NCBI GenBank assembly: GCA_963826785.1
Contig: CAWGYD010000006.1
Coordinates: forward strand, 704,001-768,000
DNA: 64,000 nucleotides
Direction: 5' to 3'
Origin: an uncultured delta proteobacterium
Lineage (GTDB): Bacteria > Desulfobacterota > Desulfobacteria > Desulfobacterales > Desulfosalsimonadaceae
Part shown: positions 1,074 through 36,030 of the stretch, one piece after another
How the letters are laid out: each line of letters opens with the position of its first letter
How positions within the stretch are numbered: position 1 is the stretch's first letter
The notes under the pieces: generated by a model
Told to the model about the DNA's origin: nothing
What the model saw: only the letters and a program-made list of their open reading frames with translations
Database searches by the model: none
Position numbers and translations under genes: made by a program

Positions 1074-1174
1074 GTTGCCACCCGGATCAGTATTCCTATC
1101 GCATGTTCCCCATCAACAATGGGCTTGGCAATCTTCAGCCGGCGAACAACAGGATTACTGCCAAAGCATAGCCG
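1074..1174 (+). repeat. ~100-bp array repeat, copy 1
   Basis: GTTGCCA...CCCCATCAA...TTGGCAATCTTC...GATTACTGCCAAAGCATAGCCG. Confidence 0.85.
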
Positions 1175-1259
1175 CAATCTGCAGCCGCCAAGTTGCATAT
1201 CCTTATGAGCCGAAAAAAGATTCATGCTTTCTACTCAAAGAAGGCGAAATACTAATATA

Positions 1260-1292
1260 AACCGGGGCTGATTTGGTATCGTGCCCCGGTTT
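1260..1292. terminator. Intrinsic terminator-like hairpin downstream of the small minus-strand gene
   Basis: AACCGGGGC...GCCCCGGTT inverted repeat with A/T flanks. Confidence 0.6.
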
Positions 1293-1313
1293 TACAAGTT
1301 TGATATTAATTTT

Positions 1314-1472
1314 CTATTTGCCTTGCGGACCTGGTGATGGCGGAGACGGAAATCCACTGCCATCAGGAATACCATCACCAGAATTTGGTGCAGGACCTCC
1401 TCCCGCGTAAACTGTTCCAACGGAAAAACCAATAAATGCCATCACAACGAGAATTAATGCCCACTTTTTCAT
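1314..1472 (-). CDS. Small secreted Gly/Pro-rich peptide (GPAPNSGDGIPDGSG motif)
   Basis: Signal-peptide-like N-terminus MKKWALILVVMAFIGFSVGTVYA, GGAGG RBS upstream, terminator downstream. Confidence 0.7.
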   Translation of the reverse strand: MKKWALILVVMAFIGFSVGTVYAGGGPAPNSGDGIPDGSGFPSPPSPGPQGK

Positions 1473-1548
1473 ATTGCCCTCCTTCCTTGTGATTGAAATA
1501 ATCAAAAATTATTTTTATGGGTTTTAATCCCCCAATATTTTAAATAGA

Positions 1549-1564
1549 TGCATAAAATTTGCCA
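1549..1564 (-). promoter_or_regulatory. Putative sigma-54 (-24/-12) promoter for the small peptide gene
   Basis: Minus strand TGGCAAATTTTATGCA has GG and GC at the canonical spacing. Confidence 0.5.
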
Positions 1565-1887
1565 AATTTAAACTCAACTTGCGATATTCGTACGGTTTAT
1601 CTCTATAGTTGGATTGATCGAAATACTTCATTGGTAAATTGGCTGGGAATCAGTTCCTGGAAGCGGATCTCGTGAACAAACCTAATATCCCATGCATATA
1701 TAGAAGGGCCGATGGGATCATAGTTAACGATAGTGAAATAAATGCGTATATAAAAATGAACTATTGTGAACTTTTGTATATATATAAATTCAAAATCCAG
1801 CATTTCGGTTTTTTTAAGATTTAAAATAAAAATATTAAAAAATAAGGAAATAAATAGTTAGATATAATGGACCTATAATCGTGATTA

Positions 1888-1903
1888 TGGCATATAAAAT
1901 GCT
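1888..1903 (+). promoter_or_regulatory. Putative sigma-54 (-24/-12) promoter for the lipoprotein gene
   Basis: TGGCATATAAAATGCT has GG and GC at the canonical spacing, about 80 bp before the ORF. Confidence 0.5.
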
Positions 1904-1985
1904 TCGAAAGAAAATTTTGGACTCCGATATGGGTCCAAAATTCAATTTGAACAAGCACTGAATTAGCATTTGAGGATCTAAGCGT

Positions 1986-2441
1986 TTGAACATTCAAAAT
2001 GTAATATCCAAACTAATTTGCATTTTGCTCCTCTTAGCCGTGTTGATGCAACCCTGTTCATGCGGCACATTGTTGTATCCCGAAAGACGCAATTCTAATC
2101 CGCATAACCGGATTCTCCCGGAAGGGCGCCAGATTGATCCAGCGGTAGCGATTATGGACGCTGCCTGCCTGGTCTTCTTTATCGTTCCAGGTTTAATTGC
2201 CTTTGCAGTCGATTTTGCCACGGGTGCGATTTACCTGCCACGAGGGAACCGAAGCGCTCTGATGCTCGATGATAATGAAAATATGGTTGTCTGCGTTGAT
2301 CCTCAAATATTGAATCCTGATGTAATTAAACAAATCATTCGCCAGAAGAAGGGTATTGATGTCGACTTCAAAGATAATCGGATGAAGGCCTACTTGGCCG
2401 AATCAGTTAATTATAATGTGATGTTATACCTAAAGATGTAA
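1986..2441 (+). CDS. Conserved hypothetical lipoprotein / membrane protein
   Basis: Lipobox-like CSC-GTLLYPERR followed by hydrophobic IDPAVAIMD..FFIVPGLIAFAVDFATGAIYLP. Confidence 0.65.
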   Translation: MNIQNVISKLICILLLLAVLMQPCSCGTLLYPERRNSNPHNRILPEGRQIDPAVAIMDAACLVFFIVPGLIAFAVDFATGAIYLPRGNRSALMLDDNENMVVCVDPQILNPDVIKQIIRQKKGIDVDFKDNRMKAYLAESVNYNVMLYLKM

Positions 2442-2562
2442 TGCGGTTTACGCTTTTAATCTTATTCCCTTCTTGGATTTCTCTGAATAATACAACAATT
2501 ATTCTCACCTTAATTCCGCCTGTAACAAGTTCATTAGAGGCCATTTTCACTGATATAACTAA

Positions 2563-4099
2563 CCCTACAACGCTCTTCGCTAAGATAAAACTTGATCAAA
2601 GTCCTTTTTTTGGGGCATATTACATGATAAAACCCCTAAAAGAGGAGGTGCCCCATGCTGCCCGACATGCGACAATCGGATTATCTCTACCCAGTGCCAA
2701 AATTTGATCTCAATCAGGACGATGTCAATCAGTTTACAAATGAATTAAAAGGCTTCCATGAACAATTCGATGACTGTTTTTTCAGGTCAGAGTCAAGAGA
2801 TAATTTTTTTCGGTACATCGCCCGCCAGTTCAGCCAAATAGAGCGAAAATCAATTGAGCCGATCGCCATTGCCATGGAAGGCGGGAAGGTTCGCGCAATG
2901 CAACGCTTTGTCAGTGATGCGCCCTGGGATGATAAAAAATTGATATCTAAGTATCAAATTATGGACGATTTGGGTCATCCGGACAACGATAATGATTTTC
3001 GATGAATCCGGGTTCATCAAAAAAGGTGATGACAGCATTGGCGTCGGCAGGCAATATTGCGGAACCGTCGGCAAAGTCAACAATTGCCAAGTCGGCGTTT
3101 TTGCGGCCTATGCTTCACCATACGGCTATGGGTTGATAGACAAGCAATTATATATTCCACAGCATTGGTTTGACGATGATCACGAAGAGCGAAAGAAATA
3201 AATGCAGACTGCCGGAAAATGTTATATTCCAAACCAAGCCGCACCTGGCTGCCGGCATGCTCAAGCATCTCTATGATGAAAAGACCATTCCTTTCGCTAT
3301 GTGCTGGGCGATTCGGTATCAGGGACAAGTGCGGAATTTATTGCTACAATCGAAAGCATGGTGGGAATGACCTATTTGGTGCAGGTCCCCGAAGATACAT
3401 TATGTTGGGCAAAGCGACCGATCACAATCACAAAAAGTTATTGTTACGGCGGCAAAAAGCAGACGAAGCGTATTCTGTCTGACACATCCGGCGATCCAAT
3501 TAAATTCGAAACATTGGCTTCCGGGATTCATAATTATTTTTGGTATCGGCGCAAAGTGTCGGAGGGAACCAAGGGGCCGATCGAATATGAATTTATGAGA
3601 CGTCGTGTGGTTTTGTCCAACAGAGGGCTTCCGGAAAAGGAAATTTGGTTGTTGGTAAGAAAAATGATGGGCGAGAATTTGCGAAATCTGCTATTATATT
3701 AGCAATGGTTCACAAAGCGTGAAAATGAGCACCTTGATCTGGCTGCGCGGTTTACGCTGGGCCATTGAGCAGTGTGTAGAAAATCCGAAACAAGAGTCCG
3801 GGGATCGACCATTATGAAGTTCGTAAATTTCCTGGATGGCACCATCATATGCTCACATGCATGCTGGCCCATTTATTTATTTTGGCACCTGAAAATCAGG
3901 TTGGGGAAAAAAAAGCACCGTCGCTTACTCTATCGCAGCTTAAGATTTTATTGAACGTACTGCTGCCGTTTAGGATATTTGGCCTTGCTGAATCCATCGA
4001 CCTGGCTCGCTGGATTCAGCGTAAAAATCATAAAGCCTATCTGTCCCACCAGAAACGGAAGCTGATGAGGCAGAATGATAAGTAAGATGTCGTTGTAGG
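2563..4099 (+). mobile_element. IS701-family insertion sequence with frameshifted transposase (2655-4085)
   Basis: Transposase fragments with ERKSIEPIA, DESGFIKKG..SIGVGRQYCGTVGKVNNCQVGV and RWAIEQC motifs; terminal IRs CCTACAACG/CGTTGTAGG; flanking CTAA duplication (2559-2562, 4100-4103) fits the YTAR target. Confidence 0.88.
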
Positions 4100-4103
4100 C
4101 TAA

Positions 4104-4501
4104 GTGAAGACCTATTCACTGATTCTGGTCCTGATTGCCGCCATAATCCCCAATGTAATTGGTTGCGCTCATGTTGATAAAAGAACGAAACCAATTGTTT
4201 ATCATGGAAAAGCTTCATATTATGGCGACTGGCATCAAGGGAAAATAACGGCCAATGGAGAAGTTTTTAACAAGAACAAACTCACCTGCGCCAATAAAAA
4301 AGTGCCTTTTGAAACATATGCCGGGTTACGAATAACTCGAACGACAGAAGTGTCATCGTCAGAGTAAATGACGGGGCCATATATCCGGGGCGGAGAGTGG
4401 ATCTATAATACAGAGCGATGAAGGATTTAGGGGGAGTCAAAGATGGCGTAATAGACGTCCGGGTTGAAATAATTGAGCTTGGTTCATGCATCCACCCATA
4501 G
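4104..4501 (+). pseudogene. RlpA-family (DPBB) lipoprotein, frameshifted
   Basis: GKASYYGDWHQGKITANGEVFNKNKLTCA, then in another frame VIVRVNDGA..IRGRRVDL. Confidence 0.75.
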
Positions 4502-4612
4502 AAGAAAAAAGAGAGCAGAATTTATCGAAATACTATCGAGGCCATTTCTGATCGCACCATCCTTTTTTGGCAGAATCTATTAAATAAATTGAAAAAAGCT
4601 GTTTGAATTGGA

Positions 4613-4712
4613 CCCAAACAATGCAATTTTCTCCCTGCCTTTTCTGTCCAGTAAAATATGGATCTGGCAATCCTCAGCAGGTCAACTTTCGCATTGCTGG
4701 CAGTCACACTTT
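4613..4712 (+). repeat. ~100-bp array repeat, copy 2 (3' end degenerate)
   Basis: GCCTTTTCTGTCCAGTAAAATATGGATCTGGCAATCCTCAG...GCATTGCTGGCAGTCA. Confidence 0.75.
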
Positions 4713-4858
4713 GTGCAATGGGACGATCATGAAAGAAATGTTTATTGCGAGGCAAAAAAGTGCTATCAAAAAAGTGCTTGACTCGTCTATCCGTTCATAC
4801 TTCAGCATGCTCTTGAAAAATACCAATTCTCTTTACAAAATAGAGAAAGGAGCATGCC

Positions 4859-5329
4859 ATGAGTAATGAAAATGCAACACGTGTTGTACAAACCTATGAT
4901 TTCGTATTAAATGCGGGGGCTGAAAACAGATATTTCCACTCCTATGTCCCACCCGGGAATACAAATCAATTAAAACTGGCGCTGCGATCTGATTTACACC
5001 GATTCAGGCGGTGCCGAAAATAATTAACGTTCCGTACGGCTTTCGAAGGGGAAGGCGAACTGATCTGGATCGTAAGCCGTTATGAACCGGACAAGGCAAT
5101 AGAGTTCGTCATTGTCGGCAGCGGCTTGACCTGAACTCGATCCTCGCCTGCTCAGAGAATGGAAACAGCCGCAGCCCGGGTGACACATACGATATAGGAT
5201 TAAAAAATGACGCGGGAAATGCCCTGGTGAAACTCCTGCCTGCGGATTTTACGGAAAATCGCTGGCGGGGGCTGGAAAAAGCTTTGGCATTATCTTCAAA
5301 CCGGCCGGATGCTCTCGACGGGAAAATAA
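4859..5329 (+). pseudogene. Hypothetical protein (possibly SRPBCC-like), multiple frameshifts
   Basis: RBS AAGGAG and ATG; fragments IFPLLCPTREY and WIVSRYEPDKAIEFV in different frames. Confidence 0.45.
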
Positions 5330-5332
5330 CCT

Positions 5333-5886
5333 GTGTATACCATCAGTGAACTTGCCCAAAAATGGGGTCTATCGCGAAGCACCTTGCTTTATTATGAGCG
5401 GTTCGGGTTGCTGGTCGCTTCCATCCGCGAGCGGAATAATTATCGCTGCTATACAGAAAAAGATGCTGCGGTGCTTGAAAAGATCCGCACTTATCGGCAG
5501 GCCGGCCTGAAACTCTGCCGATATCCGGAGGAATTCGATCGGAAAAGCCGGGCTTTCCAGAACTTCTGGAAAAACGCATATCCGAACTGAACAGCGAAGT
5601 CGCTTTACTGCGGGATCAGCAGCGCTTCATCATCTCCTTGCTGAAGCAGCCGGAAATCTTCTCGGAACCACCCGGACGGCATGGGCCAGGACACTGGATT
5701 GGATTAATGAGAAAGGCAGGATTCAGTGATGCAGACATGCTGCGCTGGCACTCCGAATTCGAAAGAAAAACCCCGGACGATCACCAGCAATTTCTGGAAC
5801 GGCTCGGATTATCCTCGAATGAAATCTCCGCGATTCGGATATGGTCCCAATCGGATTCAACTGCGGGTGACAATTCTGGCCCATAA
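5333..5886 (+). pseudogene. MerR-family transcriptional regulator, frameshifted
   Basis: YTISELAQKWGLSRSTLLYYERFGLL..NNYRCY HTH; C-terminal WIGLMRKAGFSDADMLRWHSEFE in another frame. Confidence 0.85.
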
Positions 5887-5918
5887 CACCAAGTAGCCTG
5901 AGCAATAATATTTGATCT

Positions 5919-6017
5919 CTTGTTTACAATTCTGTTCCATCCGCATTTTATCCCCATGAACGTCGGAATTGACAATCCTCGGCATTTCAATGACACATTC
6001 CTGCCAGTCTAAAGCCG
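5919..6017 (+). repeat. ~100-bp array repeat, copy 3
   Basis: CTTG...ATCCGCATTTTATCCCCATGAAC...TTGACAATCCTC...CATTCCTGCCAGTCTAAAGCCG. Confidence 0.85.
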
Positions 6018-6170
6018 CAGTGCTGGCTGGGATATGTATTCAACATATTATTTCTTTTGACAATCACCCCAAAATCTCCCATCCTTTTGTCTGTAGCCTC
6101 TGTAACCTCTGTAGCCTATTAAATAAATGACCTAAATCGCAAAAACTAAATATTTAAAAAGGAGGGGAAA

Positions 6171-6981
6171 ATGAAACTTGAGGTCATTTCAAACTCACCA
6201 GCCACGCCGTGCAAATCTCCACCAATTCTTTTGATACATGGAGCTTGGCACGGAGGGTGGTGCTGGAAAGACAATTTCCTGGATTTTTCGCTGAGAAAGG
6301 CTGGGAAACCCATGCAATGAGTCTCAGAGGCCATGGCCAGAGTGAAGGAGTGAAAAAATTCGCGGGCGGTCTATTGCTGATTATGTTGCGGATGTCAGGA
6401 AAGTCGTCGATAGCTTGAGATGTGAACCTATAATCATCGGCCATTCCATGGGTGGATTTGTAACTCAAAAATATCTGGAAAAGTATTCGGCAGTCGCTGC
6501 GATTCTATTGGCTTCTGTTCCGACCTCCGGGACATTCAAATTCAACATTCGTGTCATAAGACGGCATCCTTTGCTTTGGCTTAAAGCCAACTTAATAATG
6601 AAGCTTTACCCTATTGTGAAGAATCCAATCCACGCCCGAGAGTGGTTCTTCTCCGACTGCATTTCAGATGAGGATTTGGCCAACCACCATTCTCAATTGC
6701 AGGACGAATCATTCCGTTGTGCATTGGACATGCTTATGCTCAATCTCCCAAAACCTCAGTTGATAAAGACGCCAATTGCAGTTTTGGGTGCCGAAAATGA
6801 TGCAATCTTTTCGGTTGAGGAAGTCCAGAAAACAGCTCGGGCTTATGGAGTAGAAGCAAAAATTTTTCCAAATATGGCGCATAACATGATGTCGGAGCCA
6901 GATTGGAAAGATGTTGCAGAATGGATTGCCTGTTGGATTGAATCGATTCCCCTTGAAACGATTTCATCCGAGGTGAGTTAG
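6171..6981 (+). pseudogene. Alpha/beta hydrolase, frameshifted in the 5' part
   Basis: ILLIHGAWHGGWCW, LRGHGQSEG, nucleophile GHSMGG, C-terminal D and H (MAHNMM). Confidence 0.85.
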
Positions 6982-7071
6982 TCACAGTATTCCCCTCTTT
7001 TACACCCCATGAAACTTGAACATGGCAATCCTCAGATGGCTAATTTCCGGATTACTGCCAAAGCATAGCCG
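6971..7071 (+). repeat. ~100-bp array repeat, copy 4 (overlaps the hydrolase stop codon)
   Basis: CCCCATGAAACTTGAACATGGCAATCCTCAG...GATTACTGCCAAAGCATAGCCG. Confidence 0.88.
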
Positions 7072-7098
7072 TAGTGCGCTTTTGGAAAACTGCAAAAT

Positions 7099-8442
7099 TC
7101 AATTTTGGCTAAACACGATTTTTCCGCCTTTGACAACGGTTGCAATATTTTTCGAAGCTGCGATATCCGATAGCGGGTCGCCATCAATTATTGTAAAATC
7201 GGCATATTTACCAGGCTCAATGGTGCCGACGTCATCGGCCATGCCAATAATTTTTGCATTCACCGCGGTTGCTGCCTTCAGGGCTTCGGCGCAGGTAAAT
7301 CCCGCCTGAGTCAAGGCCTTCAACTCTTTCCAGTAACTGCCAAAAAAGCTAAGCCCCGTTCCGCAGCAGTCGGTTCCCACACCCACATTGCCGCCAACCT
7401 TTTTTATCTTCTCAACATTCTTTAACGTGATGGGATATGAGCGTTTAAAAAACTCGCTATCAGGGTAAAATTTTTTTCCATAATCAGGGGGCGGGTAAGG
7501 TGTTTTCAAGAGTTCAGTGACGCCGGAAATGGATTGTTTCAGAGGCTCAGGGAGCATATCTTCTTTTCCCATGGTTTTTAGATACGCTAAAATGTCTTCA
7601 ATCTCGTAAAAATCGGACAGAACTTTAAGCGTAGGTACGATTGCCATATTATTTTTGACGAAACCCTCTATATCGGCCTCAGACAATTCGTCCGTAGCAC
7701 AGTGTTCCAGGGTATTGACCCCCAAAGCGGCCCCTTTCAGGAAGCCTTCACGTTCAAAATGGTGCAGGGCAACCTTTTTGCCCCGCGCCCGTCCCGCTCG
7801 GACAAGGGCTTCAAAACAGGCATCGGAAAGATTAGGTAACTTTCCGTGAAAGAGAAATGAATTTGCCGTAAATTGCGATTGAAAAATCGCACCCATATCC
7901 ATCAGACGGTTGGCTGTTGCCGTTACTTGCTCCGGCGTATTTGGGCGTTCAGCAAACTGTCCTCCTGTGATGAGCGCCTGGACTGGACCGGCCCTGCGCC
8001 ATTTCCGGGACCCCCCCGGGCAGGTGATAAACAAAAGGGAGGTGAGAATCCGTGGTCCATGGCCTACCCCCCATCAATGAGGTCCCGCCATTTTAAAATC
8101 TTTTTCGGAAAAGATGCCACATCTCGAATGGTCGTGACACCATATTTGACGCAGTTTTTGAAATTTTTCGCAAGTTGACGGTTCATCTGGAGAAGCCCCG
8201 GAAGCGTCACTCTCATGATAAAAGGAACTGCGGTAGTGTATGCGGGCGTCGATAAACCCAGGTAGCAGGGGTTTCCCTATGAGATCGATTTTTTGATAGT
8301 TTGATATTGATCGCATGGATTCGGCGTCCTCGATTGCTTCAATGCGTTCTCCAACCACAACAATGATCTTGTTTTCCGTCAGAGCATCGGAGATGCCGTC
8401 AAAAAGATTCAGATTATGAAAAAGCGTTCTTTGCATCGACAT
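7099..8442 (-). pseudogene. Metal-dependent amidohydrolase, frameshifted
   Basis: DLIGKPLLPGFIDARIH, TLEHC, GTDC, AATAVNAKIIG..GTIEPGKYADF..DGDPL across several frames. Confidence 0.85.
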
Positions 8443-8579
8443 ACACCTCCTTGGTAAAAGATTTAAAGAATCATTCGAATGGTTGCATGGCGGCAGAGGG
8501 TCACCTTTCCGAGTAAAAGTCACCGCATTCCTCCAGAACACAAATGAAATTTGTGGTTAGCCCTGTCTGCCCTCCGCAT

Positions 8580-8679
8580 TACGGTGAACCTTACAGCAAT
8601 CCTGCAGATCCCGCCCAGTAAACCATTGATCGGCAATCCTCCACACTCCGATAATGGCATTACTGCTGGGTCATAGCCG
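8580..8679 (+). repeat. ~100-bp array repeat, copy 5
   Basis: GCAATCCTGC...TTGATCGGCAATCCTCC...GGCATTACTGCTGGGTCATAGCCG. Confidence 0.8.
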
Positions 8680-8859
8680 AGTCCTTTACCTGTTTGTATG
8701 TGAATTTCGTGAACCGTTTGAGGATCGATTCCCTCATAGAATTGATCCTTTTATTCCATAATCATTTCATAATCATTTCTTGACACTATAACGCTTCCAG
8801 ATACATAATAAATATTCCTTAGAGCATCTATACCGAAAACAATAAAAGAGGTGCCCATC

Positions 8860-11084: not shown

Positions 11085-11154
11085 ATATTTTCTCAGATTT
11101 GAAAATCAAAACCAAACATCTCAAAGAGCAAAATCTCTCTAAATCCCTGAGCAC

Positions 11155-12705
11155 TGATATGGTTGACAGTTGTCAAGAGAAAAAAGTACTTCCTGCCAAC
11201 TGTTTTTCAGCGGTCCTTGTCGTGGTTATATTCCAAGGCACCCAAAGGGGCGGAACCGATAGCGACGGGAGATCACTCTGATATTCGCGGGTTGGTTACG
11301 GCATGCCTTAGCTTCGTCGCGGAGCTGCCTCGGTCTAGGTCCGCGAAGTCGGCCTTAAGGCTTATCCAATAGTGCTTTCAGGGTTCTCCTGGCCGTGGTT
11401 GCGCCCCTATGGCTGCCTTTAAATGCTTTTTTCGTTTTAAACTTCCTTTATTTGCAAATGCGTCCGTTGTAATGGGTTCTTTGTTATGCCGCTACTGGAG
11501 TTTTGTTTCATTGGCGATCGCCCACATGAAAGCACAAAGTTCTCTTGCGATGGCAGTTACGATGACTTGTTTCACTTTGCCTTTGGCCCATAGGTGCCGG
11601 TAGCGTGAACATAGTCGGAGTTGGGCTTTCCATGCAATGTCGCAAATAGATTGTGGTAAGTCTTCTTGCCGTTTGACGATACCCGGCTGACTCTGGCCGG
11701 CAGCCGGTAGGCCAGGCAGCCTCAACCAATACACGCCGCACATGGCCATTGCCGGTCTTGGTGATCGAGCCGCGCCTGATCTTTTGGCCGCTGGAAGATT
11801 CCGACGGCACCAGGCCCAGGTAGCTCATCAGCTCGGCAGGATTTTCAAATCGTTTCAGGTCGCCGATTTCGGCAATCGTCGTGGCCGCCACGATCATTGA
11901 AACACCGCGCTGCTCTGAAGCGCTTGAACGACCGGAACAGTTGCCATTCGGGCAACAGCTGCAGGATCTGATCGGTTAACCGCTGTACCCGATCTTTGCA
12001 CTGGTTAAGGGTGCCGATATACTCCTGCAGGACGACCTGCTGTGACCGGTGGGGCATCTTAATGTCGGACAGCCAGCGCATATGGGCCTGGCTCCGCGAT
12101 GCCCGGCCCGTATAGCGGATGCCGCTGCGAAGCAAAAAGGCCAGCAGACGCTGTTTGCTTTTTTTCTCATCGCCCTTGGCATCCTCCCGGGCTCGTCAGA
12201 TTCTGACGGCCTCGTCCTCAGCCAGGGGAACGTGAACAGCGGTCAGTTCACCGGCGCGATGCAAGCGGGCAAGCATCAGGGCATCCCGGCGATCGTTTTT
12301 GATCTGCTTGCCACTGGGTTTGGGGATCCTGGAAGGAGCCACTACCGAGCAATCGAAGCCCCGGGAAGTGAGGTGGCGGTAGATCTGGTATCCGCAGGGG
12401 CCGGCCCCATATCCAAAATGCAGCCGGTTGCCTTTGCTGACCAATTTTCGAACCACCTTGTCTATTGATGCAAGGGTGCCGTCTATTTGGCCGTAGTGCA
12501 GGATCTCTCCGTCACAGCCGGTTTTCGCAATGGCGATATCGATGGAATTTTTATGGACGTCCATACCAATAAATGTGCTATTCTCTGTCATGACCTGCCT
12601 CCTTGGTTTTGGCTCTGTGTTGGGTGGTTTAAAATGACTTCCAACATAACCCACGTTTGCAAGGATGGCAGGTCTTTTAATTATCAATGGGTGTGCCAAG
12701 TGTGA
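11155..12705 (-). mobile_element. IS110-family element with frameshifted DEDD recombinase (~11492-12591)
   Basis: FIGMDVHK, KNDRRDA, SYLGLVPSESSSG, GNGHVRRVLVEAAW and AIAREL motifs; TGA at both putative ends (11155-11157, 12703-12705); end positions are inferred. Confidence 0.85.
11200..11410 (-). ncRNA. Candidate bridge/guide RNA in the IS110 downstream non-coding end
   Basis: About 330-bp non-coding segment 3' of the recombinase containing stem-forming TTCGCGGA..CTCCGCGACGAA; IS110-family ends are known to encode such RNAs; boundaries approximate. Confidence 0.45.
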
Positions 12706-12710
12706 GGTCA

Positions 12711-12774
12711 GCGAAATTCATCATGGCCGAGAATGGGCCCTCAAAAGCTCGTCGGAGGCCATGATGAATTTCGC
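12711..12774. repeat. 18-bp perfect inverted repeat with 28-nt loop; loop recurs at 27912-27939
   Basis: GCGAAATTCATCATGGCC / GGCCATGATGAATTTCGC. Confidence 0.85.
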
Positions 12775-12782
12775 GGCTTGTA

Positions 12783-12881
12783 CTTGCCGACACAAATTGC
12801 TCTGCTATCTGTCAACCATTATGTCTAAATCTATCAATCCTTGGCACCCCAAAAACGGCATTACTGCCAGACCCATAGCCG
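12783..12881 (+). repeat. ~100-bp array repeat, copy 6
   Basis: CTTGCC...AATCTATCAATCCTT...GGCATTACTGCCAGACCCATAGCCG. Confidence 0.85.
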
Positions 12882-14419: not shown

Positions 14420-14519
14420 CTTGCCAGCTGGATCGTAATTCTGTCATTTTTGCCCCACAAAAATTAGATCTGGCAATCTTCTGCCATCCAAAAGCCGAAT
14501 TACTATTTATCCATAGCCG
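14420..14519 (+). repeat. ~100-bp array repeat, copy 7
   Basis: CTTGCCAG...TTAGATCTGGCAATCTTC...AATTACTATTTATCCATAGCCG. Confidence 0.85.
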
Positions 14520-15624: not shown

Positions 15625-15723
15625 TTCGCCATTTTGATGAAGCAACCTCGCCTTATTACCCGTGAATCTTGGATCTGGCATCCTCAATTGCGAAGAACCG
15701 AGATTACTGTCGAGGCATAGCCG
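15625..15723 (+). repeat. ~100-bp array repeat, copy 8
   Basis: TTCGCCA...CCCGTGAATCTTGGATCTGGCATCCTC...GATTACTGTCGAGGCATAGCCG. Confidence 0.85.
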
Positions 15724-16237: not shown

Positions 16238-16288
16238 CTTCAACTGCCTCTTCTTCAGCATTGCATTGGTTCAAGAGTGAATTGAATA

Positions 16289-16738: not shown

Positions 16739-16859
16739 GATTCGAGTTCCTCCATTTTGCCATAGTCCATAAAAGCGGCAGATCAGATCTTTATAATAAT
16801 TTGGTTACTGATTGGAGCATTCTTCAAGGATTGGAGAGCGGTTATACAGGCGAACAATA

Positions 16860-17199: not shown

Positions 17200-17255
17200 A
17201 ACGGCATTGCCTGGCATGCCATCTTATCCCTAATTGGAATTAGGAGGATTAAAAT

Positions 17256-17599: not shown

Positions 17600-17625
17600 A
17601 GTTCGGAGACATCCTCTATGGAGAA

Positions 17626-18113: not shown

Positions 18114-18208
18114 CCAGTGCAGCCAAGATGCCGAACCTCTGCACCTGACCGGCGGGGTAAGTCGCCTTCTTAGCGGTGTCCCGCGGCAGGTGAACTTTGT
18201 CATCCAGA

Positions 18209-18308
18209 CCGCCAACCTTGCCACGAAATGCGTCGCCTTTTAACCCTCCTGAACACTGGACCTGGAACTTCGCAGGCGAATTTCTGGGTTACTGCCAGGC
18301 CATCACCT
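18209..18308 (+). repeat. ~100-bp array repeat, copy 9 (diverged)
   Basis: GCCAACC...CGCCTTTT..CCTGAACACTGGACCTGG...GGTTACTGCCAGGCCATCACC. Confidence 0.7.
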
Positions 18309-18399
18309 AAGTGCTCCCCTAATCAGAATACCTTTCCGCTGCGATATGGCCACCATATGCCAGGGTTAATTTGATATGCCCTGGATACCCTGGTGTGAG

Positions 18400-18728
18400 T
18401 CAGGCATGAGGAAAAATTTTCTGGAATTTCATGGCCAGCCCAAAGTCTCCCGATACTTTAATTTTGCCGGTTGTAAAGGCAAGCATCGGGTTCACCGTGT
18501 TATTAAAAAGGCCAAGCCAGGTTTTATCGGCCATCTTGACAGTAACAGTTGGCGAAACATGAATTCCTTTTTCAATTCTTAATGTCCCATTTGTAATAAT
18601 GATTTGATAGTCTCCACCATCTTCGCCCGATAAATGATATTGCAGTACTGCATTTAGTGCCCAGCATCTTCGTTATCAAAGTCTCTTTCCAATCGTTCTA
18701 TGATCTGACTGACTTTTGTTAATTCCAT
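18400..18728 (-). pseudogene. SCP2 sterol/lipid-binding domain protein, frameshifted
   Basis: LQYHLSGEDGGDYQIII..PTVTVKM..NPMLAFTTGKIKVSGDFGLAMKFQ. Confidence 0.75.
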
Positions 18729-18871
18729 TTTACTTTCCTCCCGGTGTTACGTTGTTTCTTTGATCATGCAATTGAAAACCCCAATAGAAGCATGTTAAAG
18801 CCGTCCATTTTTACCCGAAATGGGGTATGGAACTCCCCGGCGGTTCTTCCGGCCTTTCGTATAATCCGGCT

Positions 18872-19936
18872 TCATAAAATTTCTCCAAAAGCTGAAGGTG
18901 CAATAAATGGCGTTCCAGAGCATGCGGATAATCCCGTTCCATGTAAAGGTTCTTCGGATATTCCGGCCATTTTTTCATAAATCTGTTTCCATAATCCCGA
19001 GCGCATCTGAACATTATGCGCAGACTGCGGCGACTTGGCTCTGTATTCCCGAAGCGCCCGGATATCAATTTTTGCCGGTACGGCGGTCACGTTATCATGG
19101 TTCACTTTGGTAAGGATTTTGCCCTGATAATCGACAATCATGGATTGTCCCCCCAAGAGGGTGTAAGAAGTCTGCTTTTCAACGGTGGTGTAATATGGAG
19201 CGTTGTTCGGGCAAACGAGATAGCATAAATTCTCAAAGGCATGCGATATGGCGGAGGCCTCCCATATTCCCCAGGAAACCAGGGGTTCGGGCCAAGTCGG
19301 ACGGATGATGATTTCCGCCCCATTTACCGCCAGGGCACGAAATGATTCAGAAAAAAATGTTTCAGCACATATTGAAAAACCGATATTTCCAATATCCGTT
19401 TTTGCCACCGGATAGAGTGTTTCCAGTGAACTTCCGTACTTTTCAGTCCATTTTTCCCATATGTCATAGGGGCTTGCCGATCCTTCAACCACCCCGATCA
19501 CGTTTTTGGTGTGCTTCAGGATAATTTCCCCTTTTGGTGAAATCAGGAAGCCCTGGTTCATAAAACGATCTTCTGTAACGTCCGGGTCCACTACTTTTGC
19601 CTGAGCGGCAATGTAGATATCATATTCCTTTGCTTTTCTGGCCAGTTGCGCCGTCTCTTCGCCGGGAATCCGAATCGCAATGTCCCTGCAGTAAGTGGCA
19701 TGATCCATGTGATTCAATTCGTCGTAGAATCCCTGGAGAGATCCTTCCGCCAAGGCAACCAGCTTCACCGCTCCCCCTCCGACAAGATAGGAATTAATGA
19801 ACGCGTTATCGATCAGTTCTATCTGATTTTTCAGGTTTTTCTGGACATCATTCTTATTTGTGCAGCCATACGCCATGGGCTGCAATGCCACCGCAGTATA
19901 GGTGGGATATTCAAGTTTCGATCCTTCATTCATCAT
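18872..19936 (-). CDS. Nitrilase-superfamily carbon-nitrogen hydrolase (C-terminus probably frameshifted)
   Basis: E (ALAEG), K (HTKN), C (SICAE) triad; GGQSMIVDYQG. Confidence 0.85.
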   Translation of the reverse strand: MMNEGSKLEYPTYTAVALQPMAYGCTNKNDVQKNLKNQIELIDNAFINSYLVGGGAVKLVALAEGSLQGFYDELNHMDHATYCRDIAIRIPGEETAQLARKAKEYDIYIAAQAKVVDPDVTEDRFMNQGFLISPKGEIILKHTKNVIGVVEGSASPYDIWEKWTEKYGSSLETLYPVAKTDIGNIGFSICAETFFSESFRALAVNGAEIIIRPTWPEPLVSWGIWEASAISHAFENLCYLVCPNNAPYYTTVEKQTSYTLLGGQSMIVDYQGKILTKVNHDNVTAVPAKIDIRALREYRAKSPQSAHNVQMRSGLWKQIYEKMAGISEEPLHGTGLSACSGTPFIAPSAFGEIL

Positions 19937-20071
19937 ATGACTCCTCCCGGTTTGATTGAAAATTTCAACGCCCGTTTATTTGACAATGAATTATAATCAA
20001 AGTAAATATGGAGGTATCGGCAAATTACGAATATATTTTGACATTCTGCGAAAAATTTCAGGGCGGGCACA

Positions 20072-21109
20072 TTGAGTCGGAAAGGATCATATCAGGCGAC
20101 GGGCTATTATACTGTTTCGGTCGAATATATCCGCCTTGCCATGAATTATGTCGCGCAGACCGGATTCGATCCGGATCGGATATACAAAAAAGCCGGTTTC
20201 GATGCGTCCATCCTGAAAACGCCTGGTGCCCGTATCCCGCTTGATCAATTCAAAGCCATCTGGGACAAATTGGAAGAGGAATTTCCGGACCCGGATCTCG
20301 GTTTGCATGCCGGCGAAACTATATTACATCTCCCGGGTCACATTCTTTTTCTGCTGATGCTAAATGCGCCCACTCTGCGGGACGCCATTGAAAAATTTTG
20401 CAGCTATTTCAATTTAATGGCCGATTTTGCCACGCCTGATTTTCAGATAGGGAGCGATTTTGCAGCCATCTCCATCCAATTTCATCAAAAAGAGTTTCCA
20501 CTCACCCGTAATCTGAACGAAGGAATACTGTCGGCATATGCCTCTGTGCTCAGTCGCATATCAGAAAATAAAATCCGGTTTAAAGGTGTCTACTTCATGC
20601 ATCCCAGTCCAAGGGACACCTCCGAACACCATAGAATTTTTGGAGCCCCCATCTTCTTTGACCAGGCCGAAAACAGGCTTGTTTTTGACAATGAATACCT
20701 GAGCCTGCCGGTTTTACTCTCTAATAATGAGGTTCTTGAGACGCTCGAACGCACTGCCCGAAAACTCCAGGAAAGACTCTACGCAAAAGGACCTTGGAGT
20801 GAGAAGGTTGCCAGACTGATAATTGATATGATGAAGGGGCAAAAGCCTGAAATCGATTTCATCGCAAGGAAATTGGCAGTCAGCCCTCGAAACCTTCAGA
20901 TCCGGCTGAGAGAGGAGGGGGAGACATATCAGCATCTTCTTGATCAAGTCAGAAAAGAGCAGGCCCTGTATTTTTTGGAAAATGAAAATTTATCGATAAG
21001 CGAAATCAGTTTTCTCTTGGGGTATTCCGAGCAAAGTGTTTTTTCCAGGGCTTTCAAGCAATGGGTCGGTTGCACACCCGGACAATACCGCTCCAAACTG
21101 GCGACATAG
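20072..21109 (+). CDS. AraC-family transcriptional regulator
   Basis: APTLRDA N-terminal domain; C-terminal ISEISFLLGYSEQSVFSRAFKQWVGCTPGQYR. Confidence 0.93.
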   Translation: MSRKGSYQATGYYTVSVEYIRLAMNYVAQTGFDPDRIYKKAGFDASILKTPGARIPLDQFKAIWDKLEEEFPDPDLGLHAGETILHLPGHILFLLMLNAPTLRDAIEKFCSYFNLMADFATPDFQIGSDFAAISIQFHQKEFPLTRNLNEGILSAYASVLSRISENKIRFKGVYFMHPSPRDTSEHHRIFGAPIFFDQAENRLVFDNEYLSLPVLLSNNEVLETLERTARKLQERLYAKGPWSEKVARLIIDMMKGQKPEIDFIARKLAVSPRNLQIRLREEGETYQHLLDQVRKEQALYFLENENLSISEISFLLGYSEQSVFSRAFKQWVGCTPGQYRSKLAT

Positions 21110-21210
21110 CTTGCCAACCCCTGTAACAATCCCGCATTTTCTGTCCCATGAACATTTGATCTGGCAATCCTCTGAACACCAAAATCCGCATTGCTGCCAG
21201 TCCATAGCCG
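21110..21210 (+). repeat. ~100-bp array repeat, copy 10 (starts directly after the AraC stop codon)
   Basis: CTTGCCAACCCCTGTAACAATCCCGCATTTTCTGTCCCATGAACATTTGATCTGGCAATCCTC...GCATTGCTGCCAGTCCATAGCCG. Confidence 0.92.
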
Positions 21211-21348
21211 GATGGTTGAGTTAACTTGTATGAATTTCTTCGCCTGCCACATTGTGGCAATTCTCTTGACAAATAAACCCTGTAATTCATAATGACTGTA
21301 AATATCTTATCATGATTAGAAGGTTTCTTTTTTCGATAAATTTTCAAA

Positions 21349-21720
21349 ATGAAGTCAAAATATCTCGCGCTTATATTTCTTATGATTCTGCTTGCCACAC
21401 CGGGAGCAGATTTTTATGCTTTTGACGGGGGCGGCGATACGCATCACCATAACCAGGATGCAGAATCTGACAGGCCAGCGTTCAATTTTGATTTCAATAA
21501 TACGAATGGATGTCACAGCACCCATGCTCACCCGTATATTTTGCCGCCTTCAGATGTGAACCGTCGACCATCTTTGCAGTTGGTTATTGCCAGGCCGTTA
21601 ATCCCCGATATCCAGACTTCCTTGCCCCAAAAAATACCTTCCATATTGAAGCTGCAGACTTTTTCTTTCCACTTGCCTCATGAACTTTCGTTTAAGTCAA
21701 CAACTGCGCTCCTGATTTGA
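21349..21720 (+). CDS. Hypothetical His-containing exported/membrane protein
   Basis: Hydrophobic N-terminus, THHHN and CHSTHAH; lies upstream of a metal transporter. Confidence 0.45.
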   Translation: MKSKYLALIFLMILLATPGADFYAFDGGGDTHHHNQDAESDRPAFNFDFNNTNGCHSTHAHPYILPPSDVNRRPSLQLVIARPLIPDIQTSLPQKIPSILKLQTFSFHLPHELSFKSTTALLI

Positions 21721-22034
21721 TTTCCGCTTGTATAACCACAGCCGAATTTTCTTAGTTCGGGAATTTGCCTTCAAACGGCCGGCGGCTCTGTCAGCCGTAT
21801 AAAGCCTGCCGATAAATATTTGGTTTACGGCTGCCATAGGCGAGCACGCTCAAGATGAAAAATCAGATAAAGGATTGCAGCAGAGAGCGGGGTCATAAAT
21901 CTGCCCCCCTTTTGCAAAACATCGGATTATTTGCCGGTGATTCCTTTATCCATTCAAGTTCTAAAATCGGCAATGACTAAAACAGAAATATTATCGAGTC
22001 AGATTTGAATATATAATAGAAGGACAAATCAATC

Positions 22035-23489
22035 GTGAATAAATCCAAAAGAGTTTATATCGCAACCGGCATATTTATTTCAGGCGCCGCAGTCATGCTG
22101 ATCGAGCTGGTCGGCACGCGAATTATCAGGCCTATTTTCGGTTCAGGTATTTATGTCTGGTCCGCGCTGATTTCAGTTACGCTGGCATCTCTTGCCATCG
22201 GCTACTGGATCGGTGGGCGATTGGCGGATAAAAGGCCGGTTTTTACCACGCTCTACCTTCTGTTTCTTGCCATCGGAGTTGTGATGATACCCGTTCCTTT
22301 TATTTCGGGAAGCATAATGATGCGGTGCTATGCCGCCCTGGGCAGCGTGGGCGGAGGTTTGTGCAGCACCGTTGTGCTGTTTTCAATTCCATTGATACTG
22401 CTTGGGATAGTGCCGCCGACAATGATCCGGCTTCGGGCAACGATCGTTGAAACCATCGGGGCTACCGCAGGGAGCCTTTATGCGATTTCAACTTTCGGCA
22501 GTCTTGCCGGGACATTTTTGACGGGTTTTGTGCTGATTCCAAACATCGGAAATAAGGAAATCTTTCTGTTTTGTGCCAGTATTTTAATTTCGTTCTCCGC
22601 TGTGGGCTGGATCATTTTGGAAAAAAAATTTTCTGCCGCTGCGCTTCTGGTGGTTGCTTTTCTCATCCCATCATCTGCAAAACTGGTGATGGAGCAGAAA
22701 GATGGGCTTATATTTTCAGATCAAAGCCTCTATGGCGCCATTGAAGTGGTTGACAGATATGGAGAAAGATCCCTGTTAATCGACGGCAATACGAATTCTC
22801 ATATCAGCCTGGTGCCCGGCATTGATCCGATTCAATGTGAATATGTCAGAAGGTTTTCACTGCTTCCATTATTCCGGCCCGAAAGCCGTAATGGATTATG
22901 CATCGGCATGGGGGGCGGCCTGATCCCCCGGTTGCTGTCAAGATCAGGCATTGTTTTTGACATTGTTGAAATTGACCCGGTCATCCCCCGGGTTGCCCGC
23001 GATTACTTTGGCGGCCTTCAAAACAATGAAGACGTATTTATCGCGGATGGCAGATATTTTCTAAACACGATTGATCGGCAGTATGATTTTATTGTGGTGG
23101 ACGCATCCAATATTGATCATGTGCCGTTTCATCTATACTCCAAAAATTTTTTCAACGAGGCAGCGGCCAGGCTTTCTCCGGACGGGGTATTTTCCATGAA
23201 CACTTTGGGCACCCCAAATGGCGGTCAGTTCGAAAGCATACAAACAACGCTTTCAGCCGTATTTGCCCATGTGCGTGCGTTCCGGGCCCACACAACCGAA
23301 TCATCCGGAAATGCCGTCTTTTTCGCATCCAATGCACCACTTGAATTGTCACCTGAAAAGGAGGCAGAATACCAAGTTTACGAAGCGCATTTTGAGGAAA
23401 ACGGCATCATCCTGACGGATAACTTCAATCCGATCGATGTGCTGAGCGCCAAAATCGGCCCGGCCGTAAGAGATTATCATCAAAATTAG
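22035..23489 (+). CDS. Fused MFS-like membrane domain / spermidine synthase-like protein
   Basis: Multiple TM helices with GSLYAISTFGSLAGTFLTGF; SAM-binding IGMGGG, VEIDP, ADGR, LTDNFNP. Confidence 0.9.
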   Translation: MNKSKRVYIATGIFISGAAVMLIELVGTRIIRPIFGSGIYVWSALISVTLASLAIGYWIGGRLADKRPVFTTLYLLFLAIGVVMIPVPFISGSIMMRCYAALGSVGGGLCSTVVLFSIPLILLGIVPPTMIRLRATIVETIGATAGSLYAISTFGSLAGTFLTGFVLIPNIGNKEIFLFCASILISFSAVGWIILEKKFSAAALLVVAFLIPSSAKLVMEQKDGLIFSDQSLYGAIEVVDRYGERSLLIDGNTNSHISLVPGIDPIQCEYVRRFSLLPLFRPESRNGLCIGMGGGLIPRLLSRSGIVFDIVEIDPVIPRVARDYFGGLQNNEDVFIADGRYFLNTIDRQYDFIVVDASNIDHVPFHLYSKNFFNEAAARLSPDGVFSMNTLGTPNGGQFESIQTTLSAVFAHVRAFRAHTTESSGNAVFFASNAPLELSPEKEAEYQVYEAHFEENGIILTDNFNPIDVLSAKIGPAVRDYHQN

Positions 23490-23548
23490 CATGATTCCTC
23501 CTCCCGGTATAAACGGCCCTGAAGTGGGAAGGAAACGGGACAGATGAT

Positions 23549-24556
23549 ATGATGGATACAGATCACCATCAAAACGGCCACAATCACAAACACAGCCATG
23601 GCCATACGCATGTTGCCGTTGATCCCTCTGTTCTGACTACCCAAAGAGGGATATGGGCCATCAAGTGGTCGTTTGCCGGACTGTTCGCTACGGCCGCTTT
23701 CCAGATCATTATTGTCGTGTTTTCCGGGAGCGTGGCGCTGCTGGCAGACACGATTCACAACTTTGGCGATGCCGCCACAGCTGTTCCTTTGTGGATTGCC
23801 TTTCGGCTTGCCCGCTTGAAGCCCAATGATCGATTTACCTATGGTTATGGCCGCGTGGAGGACTTGGCGGGCGCGGCAATCGTATTCACCATTCTGTTCA
23901 GCGCAGCTGTGGCAGGGTATGAGTCGATTGATCGTTTTTTTCATCCGCAGACCGTAAAACACCTCTGGGCGGTAATCCTGGCCTCAGTAATCGGATTTAT
24001 CGGCAACGAGGCCGTGGCCCAGTTTCGCATCAAGGTGGGCAAAGAGATCGGCAGCGCTGCTTTGATTGCCGACGGGCATCATGCGCGAGTCGACGGGCTC
24101 ACGAGTCTGGCCGTGCTTTTGGGTGCGGCGGGCATCTGGCTGGGATATCCGAAGGCCGATCCCGTTGTCGGTCTGCTCATTACCCTTGCGATTTTAAGAA
24201 TCGTTTGGGACTCCGGAAAATCCGTCTTCACCCGGATGATCGACGGGGTGGACCCGGAGGTTGTCGATGAAATACGGGAGGCTGTAAGTCTGACACCCGG
24301 TGTAAAAGGCATCTCCGAGGTGCGGGTAAGATGGCTGGGGCACCGGCTTCATGCAGAACTGAATATTTCCGTAAACGCTGAGCTGTCAGTTGCGAAAGGG
24401 CATGAAATCGCCAAAGAAGCGCGGCATGTCCTCCAGCATAAATTGAAATACCTCTCGAATGCCACAATCCATATTGATCCGGTTAATGCTTCGGGTGAAG
24501 CGCATCACCGGATCAATGGGCATGAGCACGATGATTTGCCAGCCCACTCACATTGA
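23549..24556 (+). CDS. Cation diffusion facilitator (CDF) metal transporter
   Basis: His-rich termini, SVALLADTIHNFGD, YGYGRVEDLAG, ADGHHARVD. Confidence 0.93.
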   Translation: MMDTDHHQNGHNHKHSHGHTHVAVDPSVLTTQRGIWAIKWSFAGLFATAAFQIIIVVFSGSVALLADTIHNFGDAATAVPLWIAFRLARLKPNDRFTYGYGRVEDLAGAAIVFTILFSAAVAGYESIDRFFHPQTVKHLWAVILASVIGFIGNEAVAQFRIKVGKEIGSAALIADGHHARVDGLTSLAVLLGAAGIWLGYPKADPVVGLLITLAILRIVWDSGKSVFTRMIDGVDPEVVDEIREAVSLTPGVKGISEVRVRWLGHRLHAELNISVNAELSVAKGHEIAKEARHVLQHKLKYLSNATIHIDPVNASGEAHHRINGHEHDDLPAHSH

Positions 24557-24575
24557 AATTTTCACTTGCAGATTG

Positions 24576-24677
24576 CTTGCCAGTGCCTGGAACAATCCCG
24601 CCTTTTCCCCTCGCATGAATATTTGATCTGGCAATCCTCCGAATGGTAATTTCTGCATTACTGCCAGACCATAGCCG
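24576..24677 (+). repeat. ~100-bp array repeat, copy 11
   Basis: CTTGCCAGTGCCTGGAACAATCCCGCCTTTTCCCCTCGCATGAATATTTGATCTGGCAATCCTC...GCATTACTGCCAGACCATAGCCG. Confidence 0.92.
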
Positions 24678-24784
24678 CATGATGCATCGCGAGTGTTTTG
24701 ATCTTGCGCCTTCATCGTGTTTGGAAAGTTCGCATGAAACGTTGCCTCAGCATATTTTTTGATAAAAAATTTCCTTGCTTGTTT

Positions 24785-24800
24785 GTACCAAAATTGGTAC
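24785..24800. promoter_or_regulatory. Palindromic operator upstream of the TA operon
   Basis: GTACCAAAATTGGTAC, 10 bp before the toxin ATG. Confidence 0.5.
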
Positions 24801-24809
24801 TTATTGTTT

Positions 24810-25160
24810 ATGAATGAATTGAAGAGACTCACTGCCAGATTTTATCGGACAGAATCCGGAGGCGAACCAGTTAGGGAGTGGTTAAGGAAACTTGGCCGGC
24901 CGGATTGCACGCTTATCGGCGAGGACATCATGACAGTGGAGTTCGGTTGGCCTATTGGAATGCTAACATGTAAACCGATGGGAAAAGGGTTGTTTGAGAT
25001 CCGGACCAACCTTCCCGGCAACCGAATTTCCCGAGTCCTATTTTGTGTCAAGGAAGGACAGATGTTTTTGCTTCATGGGTTTATCAAAAAAACTCAAAAA
25101 ACTGAAAAAGCGGATCTGGATTTGGCTTTAAAACGTAAGAATGATTTGGAGGAAAAATAA
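24810..25160 (+). CDS. RelE/ParE-superfamily (Gp49/HigB-like) toxin
   Basis: FYRTESGGEPVREWL..GWPIGM..GLFEIR..LLHGFIKKTQKT. Confidence 0.9.
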   Translation: MNELKRLTARFYRTESGGEPVREWLRKLGRPDCTLIGEDIMTVEFGWPIGMLTCKPMGKGLFEIRTNLPGNRISRVLFCVKEGQMFLLHGFIKKTQKTEKADLDLALKRKNDLEEK

Positions 25161-25162
25161 AC

Positions 25163-25450
25163 ATGAATAACAGGCATATCGGCTCAAAATTTGATGATTT
25201 CCTTCAAGAAGAAGGGATTCAGACTGAGGTGACGACCCGGGCTTTGAAAAAGGTCCTTGCCTGGCAGATCACCGAAACTATGAAAAAAGAGGGACTGAGC
25301 AAAACGAAAATGGCGGCCAGGATGAAAACCAGCCGCTCTGCGTTGGATCGGCTGCTTGATCCGGGAAATACTTCGGTTACACTCCAGACCATGGATCGAG
25401 CCGCTATAGTTTTAGGAAAGAGGCTCCATGTTGAACTTATGGATGCTTAG
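25163..25450 (+). CDS. XRE/HTH antitoxin
   Basis: HIGSKFDDFL..MAARMKTSRSALDRLLDP..SVTLQT; directly follows the toxin. Confidence 0.9.
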   Translation: MNNRHIGSKFDDFLQEEGIQTEVTTRALKKVLAWQITETMKKEGLSKTKMAARMKTSRSALDRLLDPGNTSVTLQTMDRAAIVLGKRLHVELMDA

Positions 25451-25618
25451 GGACCGTAAATACACCGGATTTATTTCCGAACCCCCTCCAATTACGATAA
25501 TCTTTCTATGTGTTCCCCTTCCGTTTTTCTATCTTTCCGCTCATTAGTGAGAACCAATGCGTCGGCCCCGGTTGCACATAACTATTCCGGCAGTATCGCA
25601 ATGCATCCGGGCAGTAAA

Positions 25619-25718
25619 CTTGCCATCCCCTGGCGCAATCCTGCTGCATTTCCCCATGAAACTTTAATCTGACAATCCTCAGCGGGCCAATTTCCGCATT
25701 ACTGGAAGACCATAGCCG
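25619..25718 (+). repeat. ~100-bp array repeat, copy 12 (recombinase-proximal)
   Basis: CTTGCCATCCCCTGGCGCAATCCTGC...CCCCATGAAACTTTAATCTGACAATCCTC...GCATTACTGGAAGACCATAGCCG. Confidence 0.92.
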
Positions 25719-36013: not shown

Positions 36014-36030
36014 AAAACAAGCGGCGGCAG

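Follow-up and report, generated by a model that had tools for sequence, protein, structure and literature searches.

Integrons are the textbook bacterial route for collecting and reordering gene cassettes, dif modules rely on the host XerCD, and in tandem accretion integrative elements are added as units at the conserved core of one att site. The present analysis concerns an array of ~101-bp repeats with interposed cargo genes in the genome (G000; GenBank assembly GCA_963826785.1) of an uncultured delta proteobacterium of the family Desulfosalsimonadaceae, together with a small XerA-like tyrosine recombinase, YR-A, encoded in the same island. The stretch of DNA analysed, referred to as the window, comprises 64,000 nucleotides and corresponds to G000:C6:704001-768000 (contig CAWGYD010000006.1); coordinates prefixed with C6 follow the contig numbering and those without prefix the window. 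To judge from sequence comparison, the array and its candidate enzyme probably represent a distinct gene-cassette system, which is most like the Acinetobacter dif modules in its working and like an integron array in appearance, and which in its sites and its enzyme departs from what defines either of them.

In the Acinetobacter dif modules (pdif sites, XerC/XerD), inverted sites alternate so that two kinds of module arise, matching spacers are required, two adjacent modules are excised together, the cargo comprises toxin-antitoxin and stress genes, and 'empty' modules exist (PMC13141974). Sites alternating in orientation, and hence two module kinds, are also found here, although for the ATAGCCG site family only (see below), and crossover within matching spacers is suggested by comparative breakpoints. 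Cargo of toxin-antitoxin and stress genes and 'empty' modules are further points of resemblance, as would be the joint excision of two adjacent modules. In contrast, the array sites do not have the 28-bp layout of XerC arm, 6-bp spacer and XerD arm, when compared with Table 1 of PMC13141974; the varied spacers are replaced by two fixed 7-bp centres; modules of one kind consist of a fixed ~90-bp linker or of the recombinase gene; the enzyme would be a dedicated one; and the arrays are chromosomal, whereas dif modules reside on Rep_3 plasmids. A dif reading of the repeat was rejected, since a dif-like pattern occurs in only three places in the genome, all on contig C5 and none at a site.

Integrons consist of a tandem, one-way array of unrelated accessory genes with crossover at the 3′ end of each unit's site, a tyrosine recombinase and, in places, enzyme-free clusters (PMC8618304). 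The tandem, co-oriented array of mobile units is shared by the locus described here, as are the position of the crossover, a tyrosine recombinase and clusters that have no enzyme gene. However, its sites are not folded attC sites and lack the RYYYAAC...GTTRRRY ends, as the preliminary description of the window had stated: on the + strand the first motif occurs in 0/12 copies, and the second in 1/12, where it lies beyond the repeat itself. YR-A lacks the IntI insertion, and its gene sits inside a split site, whereas integrons have attI and Pc beside the integrase gene. The cargo comprises several genes in either orientation along with regulators of its own, as opposed to mostly single, promoterless, co-oriented open reading frames (ORFs). 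The genome does contain a true integron integrase at G000:C5:189246 (frameshifted in the assembly) and a second, partial one at C8:211754, but the profile search of the genome placed no array-type site near the former. With tandem accretion the array has in common its position near tRNA genes and the addition of units at a conserved core; it differs in that the units carry no integrase of their own and the core is not a tRNA end. A tRNA-end att reading was rejected, no duplicate of either tRNA 3′ end being present in C6 690-790 kb.

Repeat sites and their two inverted cores

All 12 repeat copies previously reported from the window were recovered in place, every one on the + strand, and none was detected by profile search past 25718 within the window, in agreement with the earlier account. 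The copies are strongly diverged (mean pairwise identity 58%, range 47-79%), yet a profile of the 12 scores each of them at 46-91 bits in the genome, as compared with a maximum of 7.8 bits in the reversed genome. A model built only from 59 sites of relatives recovered 10/12 window copies at E<=0.03, missing those at 5919 and 18209. The array had been suspected to continue to the left, and it does: two full sites and a site split around the recombinase gene precede the window. The reported contacts with coding sequences hold as well, the AraC stop ending at 21109 immediately before the L centre of site 10, and the hydrolase ORF ending at 6981, inside copy 4. Copy 6 was correctly identified as a repeat on the + strand, but its left ~46 nt (12783-12828) are the end, on the - strand, of an IS110-family element and are identical to the end of the copy of this element on contig C4; the lost half of the site is absent from the other side of the element. 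Copies 2, 3, 4, 5 and 9 have decayed ends.

The genome contains 24 sites, 14 in the array (C6:699625-729718, ~30 kb) and 10 beyond it, as singles or small clusters on C1, C2, C3 and C6. The preliminary description had regarded copies scattered in both orientations as contrary to its reading; such copies exist in part, in that singles and small clusters occur elsewhere and orientation differs between clusters, but the clusters themselves are co-oriented.

Each repeat is made up of two inverted core sites with unlike 7-bp centres, CTTGCCA in the left (L) and ATAGCCG in the right (R) core. The order is outer arm, CTTGCCA and inner arm for L, and inner arm, ATAGCCG and outer arm for R. The two 7-column blocks of the centres are 88-100% conserved across 74 non-redundant sites, and L and R are 94 bp apart, the distance being 93-95 nt in 71 of 82 sites. 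When profiles of the L arms are compared with those of the reverse-complemented R arms, the correlation at shift 0 is 0.90 for the outer and 0.68 for the inner arms; it does not exceed 0.18 at other shifts, and it is -0.17 for the centres. Taken together with general knowledge of tyrosine recombinases, this suggests that the centres are 7-bp strand-exchange spacers. Because each repeat consists of two inverted cores, the array alternates between two kinds of block. The inner block (L to R) would be an empty ~90-bp linker or the recombinase gene, whereas the outer block (R to L) would hold 1-4 kb of cargo, whose genes face either way and have promoters of their own, an arrangement resembling the C and D dif modules.

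A hairpin or structured-RNA reading of the repeat was rejected, there being no consensus fold, no helix-like covariation and no Rfam match (0 matches, as anticipated in the preliminary description). Neither 19 nor 72 aligned sites gave paired columns or a run of four complementary columns, and 15/16 single-site folds lie within 1.3 standard deviations of shuffled sequences. The spacing of 1.0-4.2 kb between sites, as against the 30-50-nt spacers of CRISPR arrays, also bears out the earlier statement that the repeat is not a CRISPR.

Homology breakpoints and the proposed exchange of cargo

The unit that ends the array (24669-25718) is duplicated at C6:3158-4207 on the - strand, with 99.6% identity over 1041 bp and four internal mismatches. 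The match opens within the R centre of site 11 and closes at that of site 12: the repeats upstream of the two unit copies differ up to CCATAGCCG, and the downstream DNA diverges at the first base past the next CCATAGCCG. Since the copies diverge outside both R centres, the moved unit comprises the cargo and the repeat that trails it, with the cut at the R centre. A second R-to-R duplicate (919 bp, 93%), with ends like those of the first, is present in genome G027.

Pairs of sites drawn from 146 unique sites, which are related and hence not independent, place breaks at both centres. Where the linker is the same and the cargo start differs, identity extends 0-2 nt beyond the R centre (7/7 pairs); where the cargo start is the same and the linker differs, the break lies 7 and 9 nt to the left of the centre end (2/2 pairs, a third having been dropped as an indel artefact). 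With the same linker and different cargo ends, 8/10 pairs diverge 0-1 nt left of the L centre, and the one pair with the same cargo end and different linkers breaks at the L centre. The centre-to-centre duplicate and the sharp breakpoints in relatives thus sustain the earlier proposal that the repeats act as module junctions. Such base-precise breaks at the centres are not expected of a regulatory element, an operator or promoter block dispersed along with accessory genes, as might otherwise be suggested by the intergenic position of the repeat, by the part of it that lies in front of YR-A and by repeated short motifs that could bind a regulator. In addition, genes on both sides of the repeats face either way, and a promoter and terminator scan around YR-A remained at chance level, so that we regard a regulatory role as hardly probable at all.

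We consider it likely that like-with-like recombination at the L or R centres by YR-A would move cargo together with linker, or swap cargo by two crossovers, the gene of the enzyme filling one of the linkers. YR-A would recombine double-stranded sites of matching centres, R with R and L with L, but not L with R. Such matching would imply that one cargo and one linker are excised as a circle and reinserted at another R or L centre, while a double crossover would swap the cargo alone. A -1 slip on an A-run would keep YR-A levels low, and chance centre-like sequences may seed new arrays near tRNA islands.

The candidate enzyme and its co-variation with the sites

YR-A was located by scanning the genome for all tyrosine recombinases. 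Its gene is flanked by the left 64 site positions upstream and by the right part of the site downstream. In an enzyme tree of 45 proteins (FastTree; 74 matches dropped: 54 partial, 12 duplicate, 4 with short flanks and 4 with stops), the YR-A clade, which includes the source genome, has a support of 0.945. Among its other members, metagenome loci outside the training set included, the L part lies upstream in 10/11 and the R part downstream in 10/11, whereas L and R parts of the ATAGCCG site flank 0/9 sister-clade enzymes.

YR-A is a two-domain, arm-less protein, nearest to XerA by profile, sequence and predicted fold (the fold being that predicted for the in-frame homologue P0043, pLDDT 80.6). 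The archaeal XerA is its nearest relative of solved sequence and fold; YR-A differs in scoring below the cut-off of the XerA model (110.9 bits, cut-off 220) and in its patchy distribution, the family comprising 4,745 clusters at E<=1e-40 and occurring in 22 of 301 sampled genomes of the phylum. YR-A is not a housekeeping gene, and no match was obtained among 72,556 plasmids at E<=1e-30. On the IntI model TIGR02249 it reaches 43.7 bits against a cut-off of 265, and the distance from the catalytic R motif to H-x-x-R is 81 residues, as compared with 94 in the two Xer-type proteins and >123 in the genome's own IntI. The catalytic R, K, H-x-x-R, H and Y are invariant in 48 homologues. No subgroup matching the YR-A type is named in the passages of 10.1101/542381 that classify recombinases.

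The start ORF and the main ORF of YR-A lie in different frames on the two sides of seven consecutive A (C6:700496-700502). An A-run of 6-9 A is present at this place in 55 of 60 distinct 5′ regions (in one of the 55 it lies near the ribosome-binding site), and natural in-frame homologues of 278 aa display the joined product. From these sequences we infer a programmed -1 slip at the A-run. The main text of PMC3711429, which deals with conserved frameshifts, contains neither 'integrase' nor 'recombinase'.

Alternatively, the repeats may be real recombination sites that are worked in trans by the host XerC/XerD or by the C5 integron integrase, YR-A being merely cargo. The genome indeed encodes two Xer-type proteins and an integron integrase scoring above the family cut-off, half of the site-bearing relatives have no detected YR-A, and the layout mirrors that of dif modules. 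Against this stand the absence of a dif-like pattern from every site and of a hairpin for IntI, the position of YR-A inside a site and not in a cargo slot, and the correspondence between enzyme clade and centre sequence. We therefore hold action by host enzymes to be decidedly improbable.

The ATAGCCG model matches 23/57 other genomes of the family and 2/150 genomes sampled from the order (26 candidates being scored per genome). That relatives would carry tandem, co-oriented arrays, as the preliminary description had envisaged, is supported by the multi-site loci, all of which lie on one strand in the family genomes (26/26) and nearly all in a larger set (29/31). Enzymes of the sister clade are followed by a different site, TTATCGA, which likewise forms co-oriented clusters (22/23 multi-site loci one-stranded), with breaks at the TTATCGA centre in 6/6 informative pairs. 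A sister-site model, seeded from the DNA behind sister enzymes, finds 3-52 copies per genome in 14/14 genomes of genus g3, 0/7 of g10 and 3/16 of g6; the ATAGCCG model gives the mirror image, with 0/14, 7/7 and 12/16, respectively. At the corresponding place a distant clade has GCTGTCA, although the motif labels mis-assigned four distant-clade tips that have both GCTGTCA and a later ATAGCC. Clades of the enzyme family seem to use different 7-bp centres.

These counts also bear on another explanation, namely that the repeat is a miniature, internally deleted L-recombinase-R element that inserts itself, in the manner of a miniature inverted-repeat transposable element (MITE), with a preference for accessory DNA, modules moving only as composites between neighbouring copies. 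The repeat does equal the flanks of YR-A minus the gene; linkers that are almost identical have different neighbours on the left and on the right, for example at C1:864567 and C1:875443; and besides the ten sites outside the array there are up to 52 sister sites in many clusters in genome G080. However, both centres are near-invariant, although an element that inserts freely would be expected to derive one of them from its target, and the clusters are one-stranded (26/26 and 22/23 loci in the two site families). Moreover, complete units are transferred from centre to centre while the upstream linker stays in place, and the outer arms, which are conserved, are part of the cargo side. We regard a self-inserting element as unlikely.

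Several observations weigh against exchange by YR-A as proposed above. At the level of the sites, just 11/74 carry the exact TG in the outer L arm, and linkers that are 92-97% identical often differ in the ~7 nt adjoining the L centre on its inner side, so that L crossovers are less clean than those at R. In the source genome many left-hand cargo genes are frameshifted, and the enzyme copy itself is broken, YR-A having a second break near C6:701005. The window cargo at 18309-25718 was not found in five relatives, in a search that had no positive control, and a YR-A match is missing in 12/23 site-bearing relatives, mostly fragmented assemblies. An inverted L core could be demonstrated for the ATAGCCG family but not for the TTATCGA sister family. 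Single-sequence searches found co-oriented flank copies for only 2/9 distant homologues (51-63%), and in the complete genome G106 none near or away from the YR-A homologue. Finally, since the genera are kin, the co-variation of enzyme and site amounts to two or three events and not to dozens.

It is tempting to speculate that a third kind of cassette platform is at hand, and we lean slightly towards this view: Desulfobacterota would possess thousands of XerA-like recombinases, small and under frameshift control, each located between its own two unlike cores; arrays of empty L-R linkers would be kept for docking, and cargo of several genes would be exchanged through paired crossovers of like with like at clade-specific centres, which amounts to cassette exchange in nature. 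The contribution of the present locus is the ~101-bp site family, the inverted two-core map, the breaks at both centres and the mirror of enzymes and sites in the sister clade. A literature search, from whose coverage most subscription journals were absent, returned no description of such a system. If the system is indeed separate, with an enzyme of its own, and escapes attC-based tools, it would account for the hypervariable islands of sulfate reducers in sediments and would constitute a new natural pool of accessory modules. The large family and its clade-specific 7-bp centres may therefore also be a source of compact, mutually independent recombinase-site pairs with a two-site exchange design.

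Cargo, the IS91-family element and other features

The genes for tRNA-Lys and tRNA-Glu, 7.7 kb to the left of the window, mark the start of the island (Table 1). As originally described, the modules are unrelated, with 1.0-4.2 kb of cargo between sites: they include a BrnT pair, a desaturase, kinase/regulator genes, MerR, hydrolases, a subtilase, a LuxR regulator, a carbon-nitrogen hydrolase with AraC, a cation efflux protein and a Gp49/helix-turn-helix (HTH) pair. Cargo is multi-gene, includes regulators and has genes in both orientations. The GC content of the left 32 kb is below that of the core half. ORFs left of 18308 are often frameshifted, whereas those right of it and the core genes are intact, and site quality shows the same trend; the left-hand frameshifts may reflect decay or assembly error, and the array in the source genome may be decaying. 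Cargo ends of 120-130 bp are common, at 88%, to places just upstream of sites (25454-25573 and C1:864446-864565; 24446-24569 and C3:161957-162087).

Table 1. Coordinates of repeat sites, cargo and neighbouring features (window numbering unless prefixed with C6)
Feature	Coordinates	Strand	Remarks
tRNA-Lys and tRNA-Glu	C6:696207-696376	+	
Full site left of window	C6:699625-699731	+	
BrnT pair	between C6:699625 site and YR-A split site	+	cargo
Split site, left part	C6:700310-700373	+	upstream of YR-A
YR-A, small XerA-like tyrosine recombinase	C6:700440-701275	+	candidate enzyme; ~3.5 kb left of window
Split site, right part	C6:701319-701376	+	downstream of YR-A
Desaturase cargo	between split site (C6:701376) and C6:702705 site	+	
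Full site left of window	C6:702705-702804	+	
PAS/kinase/response-regulator cargo, end of module	1..1073	-	module begins left of window
Site 1	1074..1174	+	
Site 2	4613..4713	+	both centres decayed
Site 3	5919..6017	+	L end decayed
Site 4	6971..7071	+	L end lost under hydrolase stop
Site 5	8580..8679	+	L end decayed
IS110-family element	11152..12828	-	copies on C4, C10; end occupies left part of site 6
Site 6	12829..12881	+	right half only
Site 7	14420..14519	+	
Site 8	15625..15723	+	
Site 9	18209..18308	+	decayed
Cargo: carbon-nitrogen hydrolase and divergent AraC regulator	18309..21109	- (hydrolase), + (AraC)	
Site 10	21110..21210	+	top-scoring copy; L centre 21110-21116, R centre 21204-21210
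Cargo: small ORF, spermidine-synthase-domain membrane protein, cation efflux protein	21211..24575	+	
Site 11	24576..24677	+	
Duplicated mobile unit: Gp49/RelE-like gene, HTH partner and site 12	24669..25718	+	
Site 12	25619..25718	+	final array site
IS91-family element	25719..27382	+	left end exactly at R centre of site 12; gene pair spans 25865-27389

The array is adjoined on its right by an IS91-family element with a tyrosine recombinase, a kind of recombinase that 10.1101/542381 places in an Integron-like subgroup without the IntI insertion. Its phage-integrase-family gene (25865-~26720) is frameshifted and its IS91 transposase gene, from 26715, is cut short. The preliminary description had implied that the repeats are linked to this gene pair, or nicked by it, and in such a case they would be oriIS- or terIS-like ends serving rolling-circle capture. 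An oriIS reading was at first favoured because the repeat starts with CTTG, the IS91 target (PMC13181058), and a CCATAG-like motif lies behind the transposase of a relative; furthermore, an IS91-family element abuts the R centre both in the source genome and in G005. It was rejected for want of linkage between sites and elements: 80 loci (934 kb) near relatives of the integrase contain 0 sites, the same left end is found in unrelated DNA in 18/26 close relatives, and, in an identical set of 13 site-bearing relatives, the transposase is present in just 2 as compared with 7 for YR-A. An IS91-type end is thus very improbable and this reading is largely refuted; the element is untied to the sites, and the gene pair is a passenger. 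Accordingly, of the gene-capture platform distinct from integrons that had been proposed, the junction role, the non-attC nature, the co-orientation and the leftward extension stand, but the link to integrase and IS91 transposase does not.

In two genera such an element begins at the base directly following an R centre, at 25719 and at G005:C80 (L135:1654); the two elements are 76% identical, and the shared junction reflects either an old common insertion or a preferred target. Related integrase-plus-IS91 elements at L010, L011 and L013 have inverted ends, GAACTGAACC on the left and GGTTCAGTTC or similar on the right, unlike classical IS91, and a long hairpin follows some elements of this type.

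Right of the array, a toxin-antitoxin-type cluster (AbiEi, zeta-like, HicAB) at 28098-31829 has no site. At the island's opposite end, left of the window, the C-terminal remnant of another tyrosine recombinase follows directly after tRNA-Glu (L001:12420-12760) and precedes a DDE transposase gene. Sites in relatives and on C1 are often a few kb from tRNA or tmRNA genes (L139, L156, L160, L163, L007). A 135-bp self-complementary, MITE-like dispersed repeat, unrelated to the array sites, is found at G000:C3:168317-168452 and in ~30 other places with 95-100% identity. Between core fatty-acid genes of the window, palindromes CCCCCCTCGAGGGGGG resembling repetitive extragenic palindromic (REP) sequences occur at 35134-40646 and 55525.

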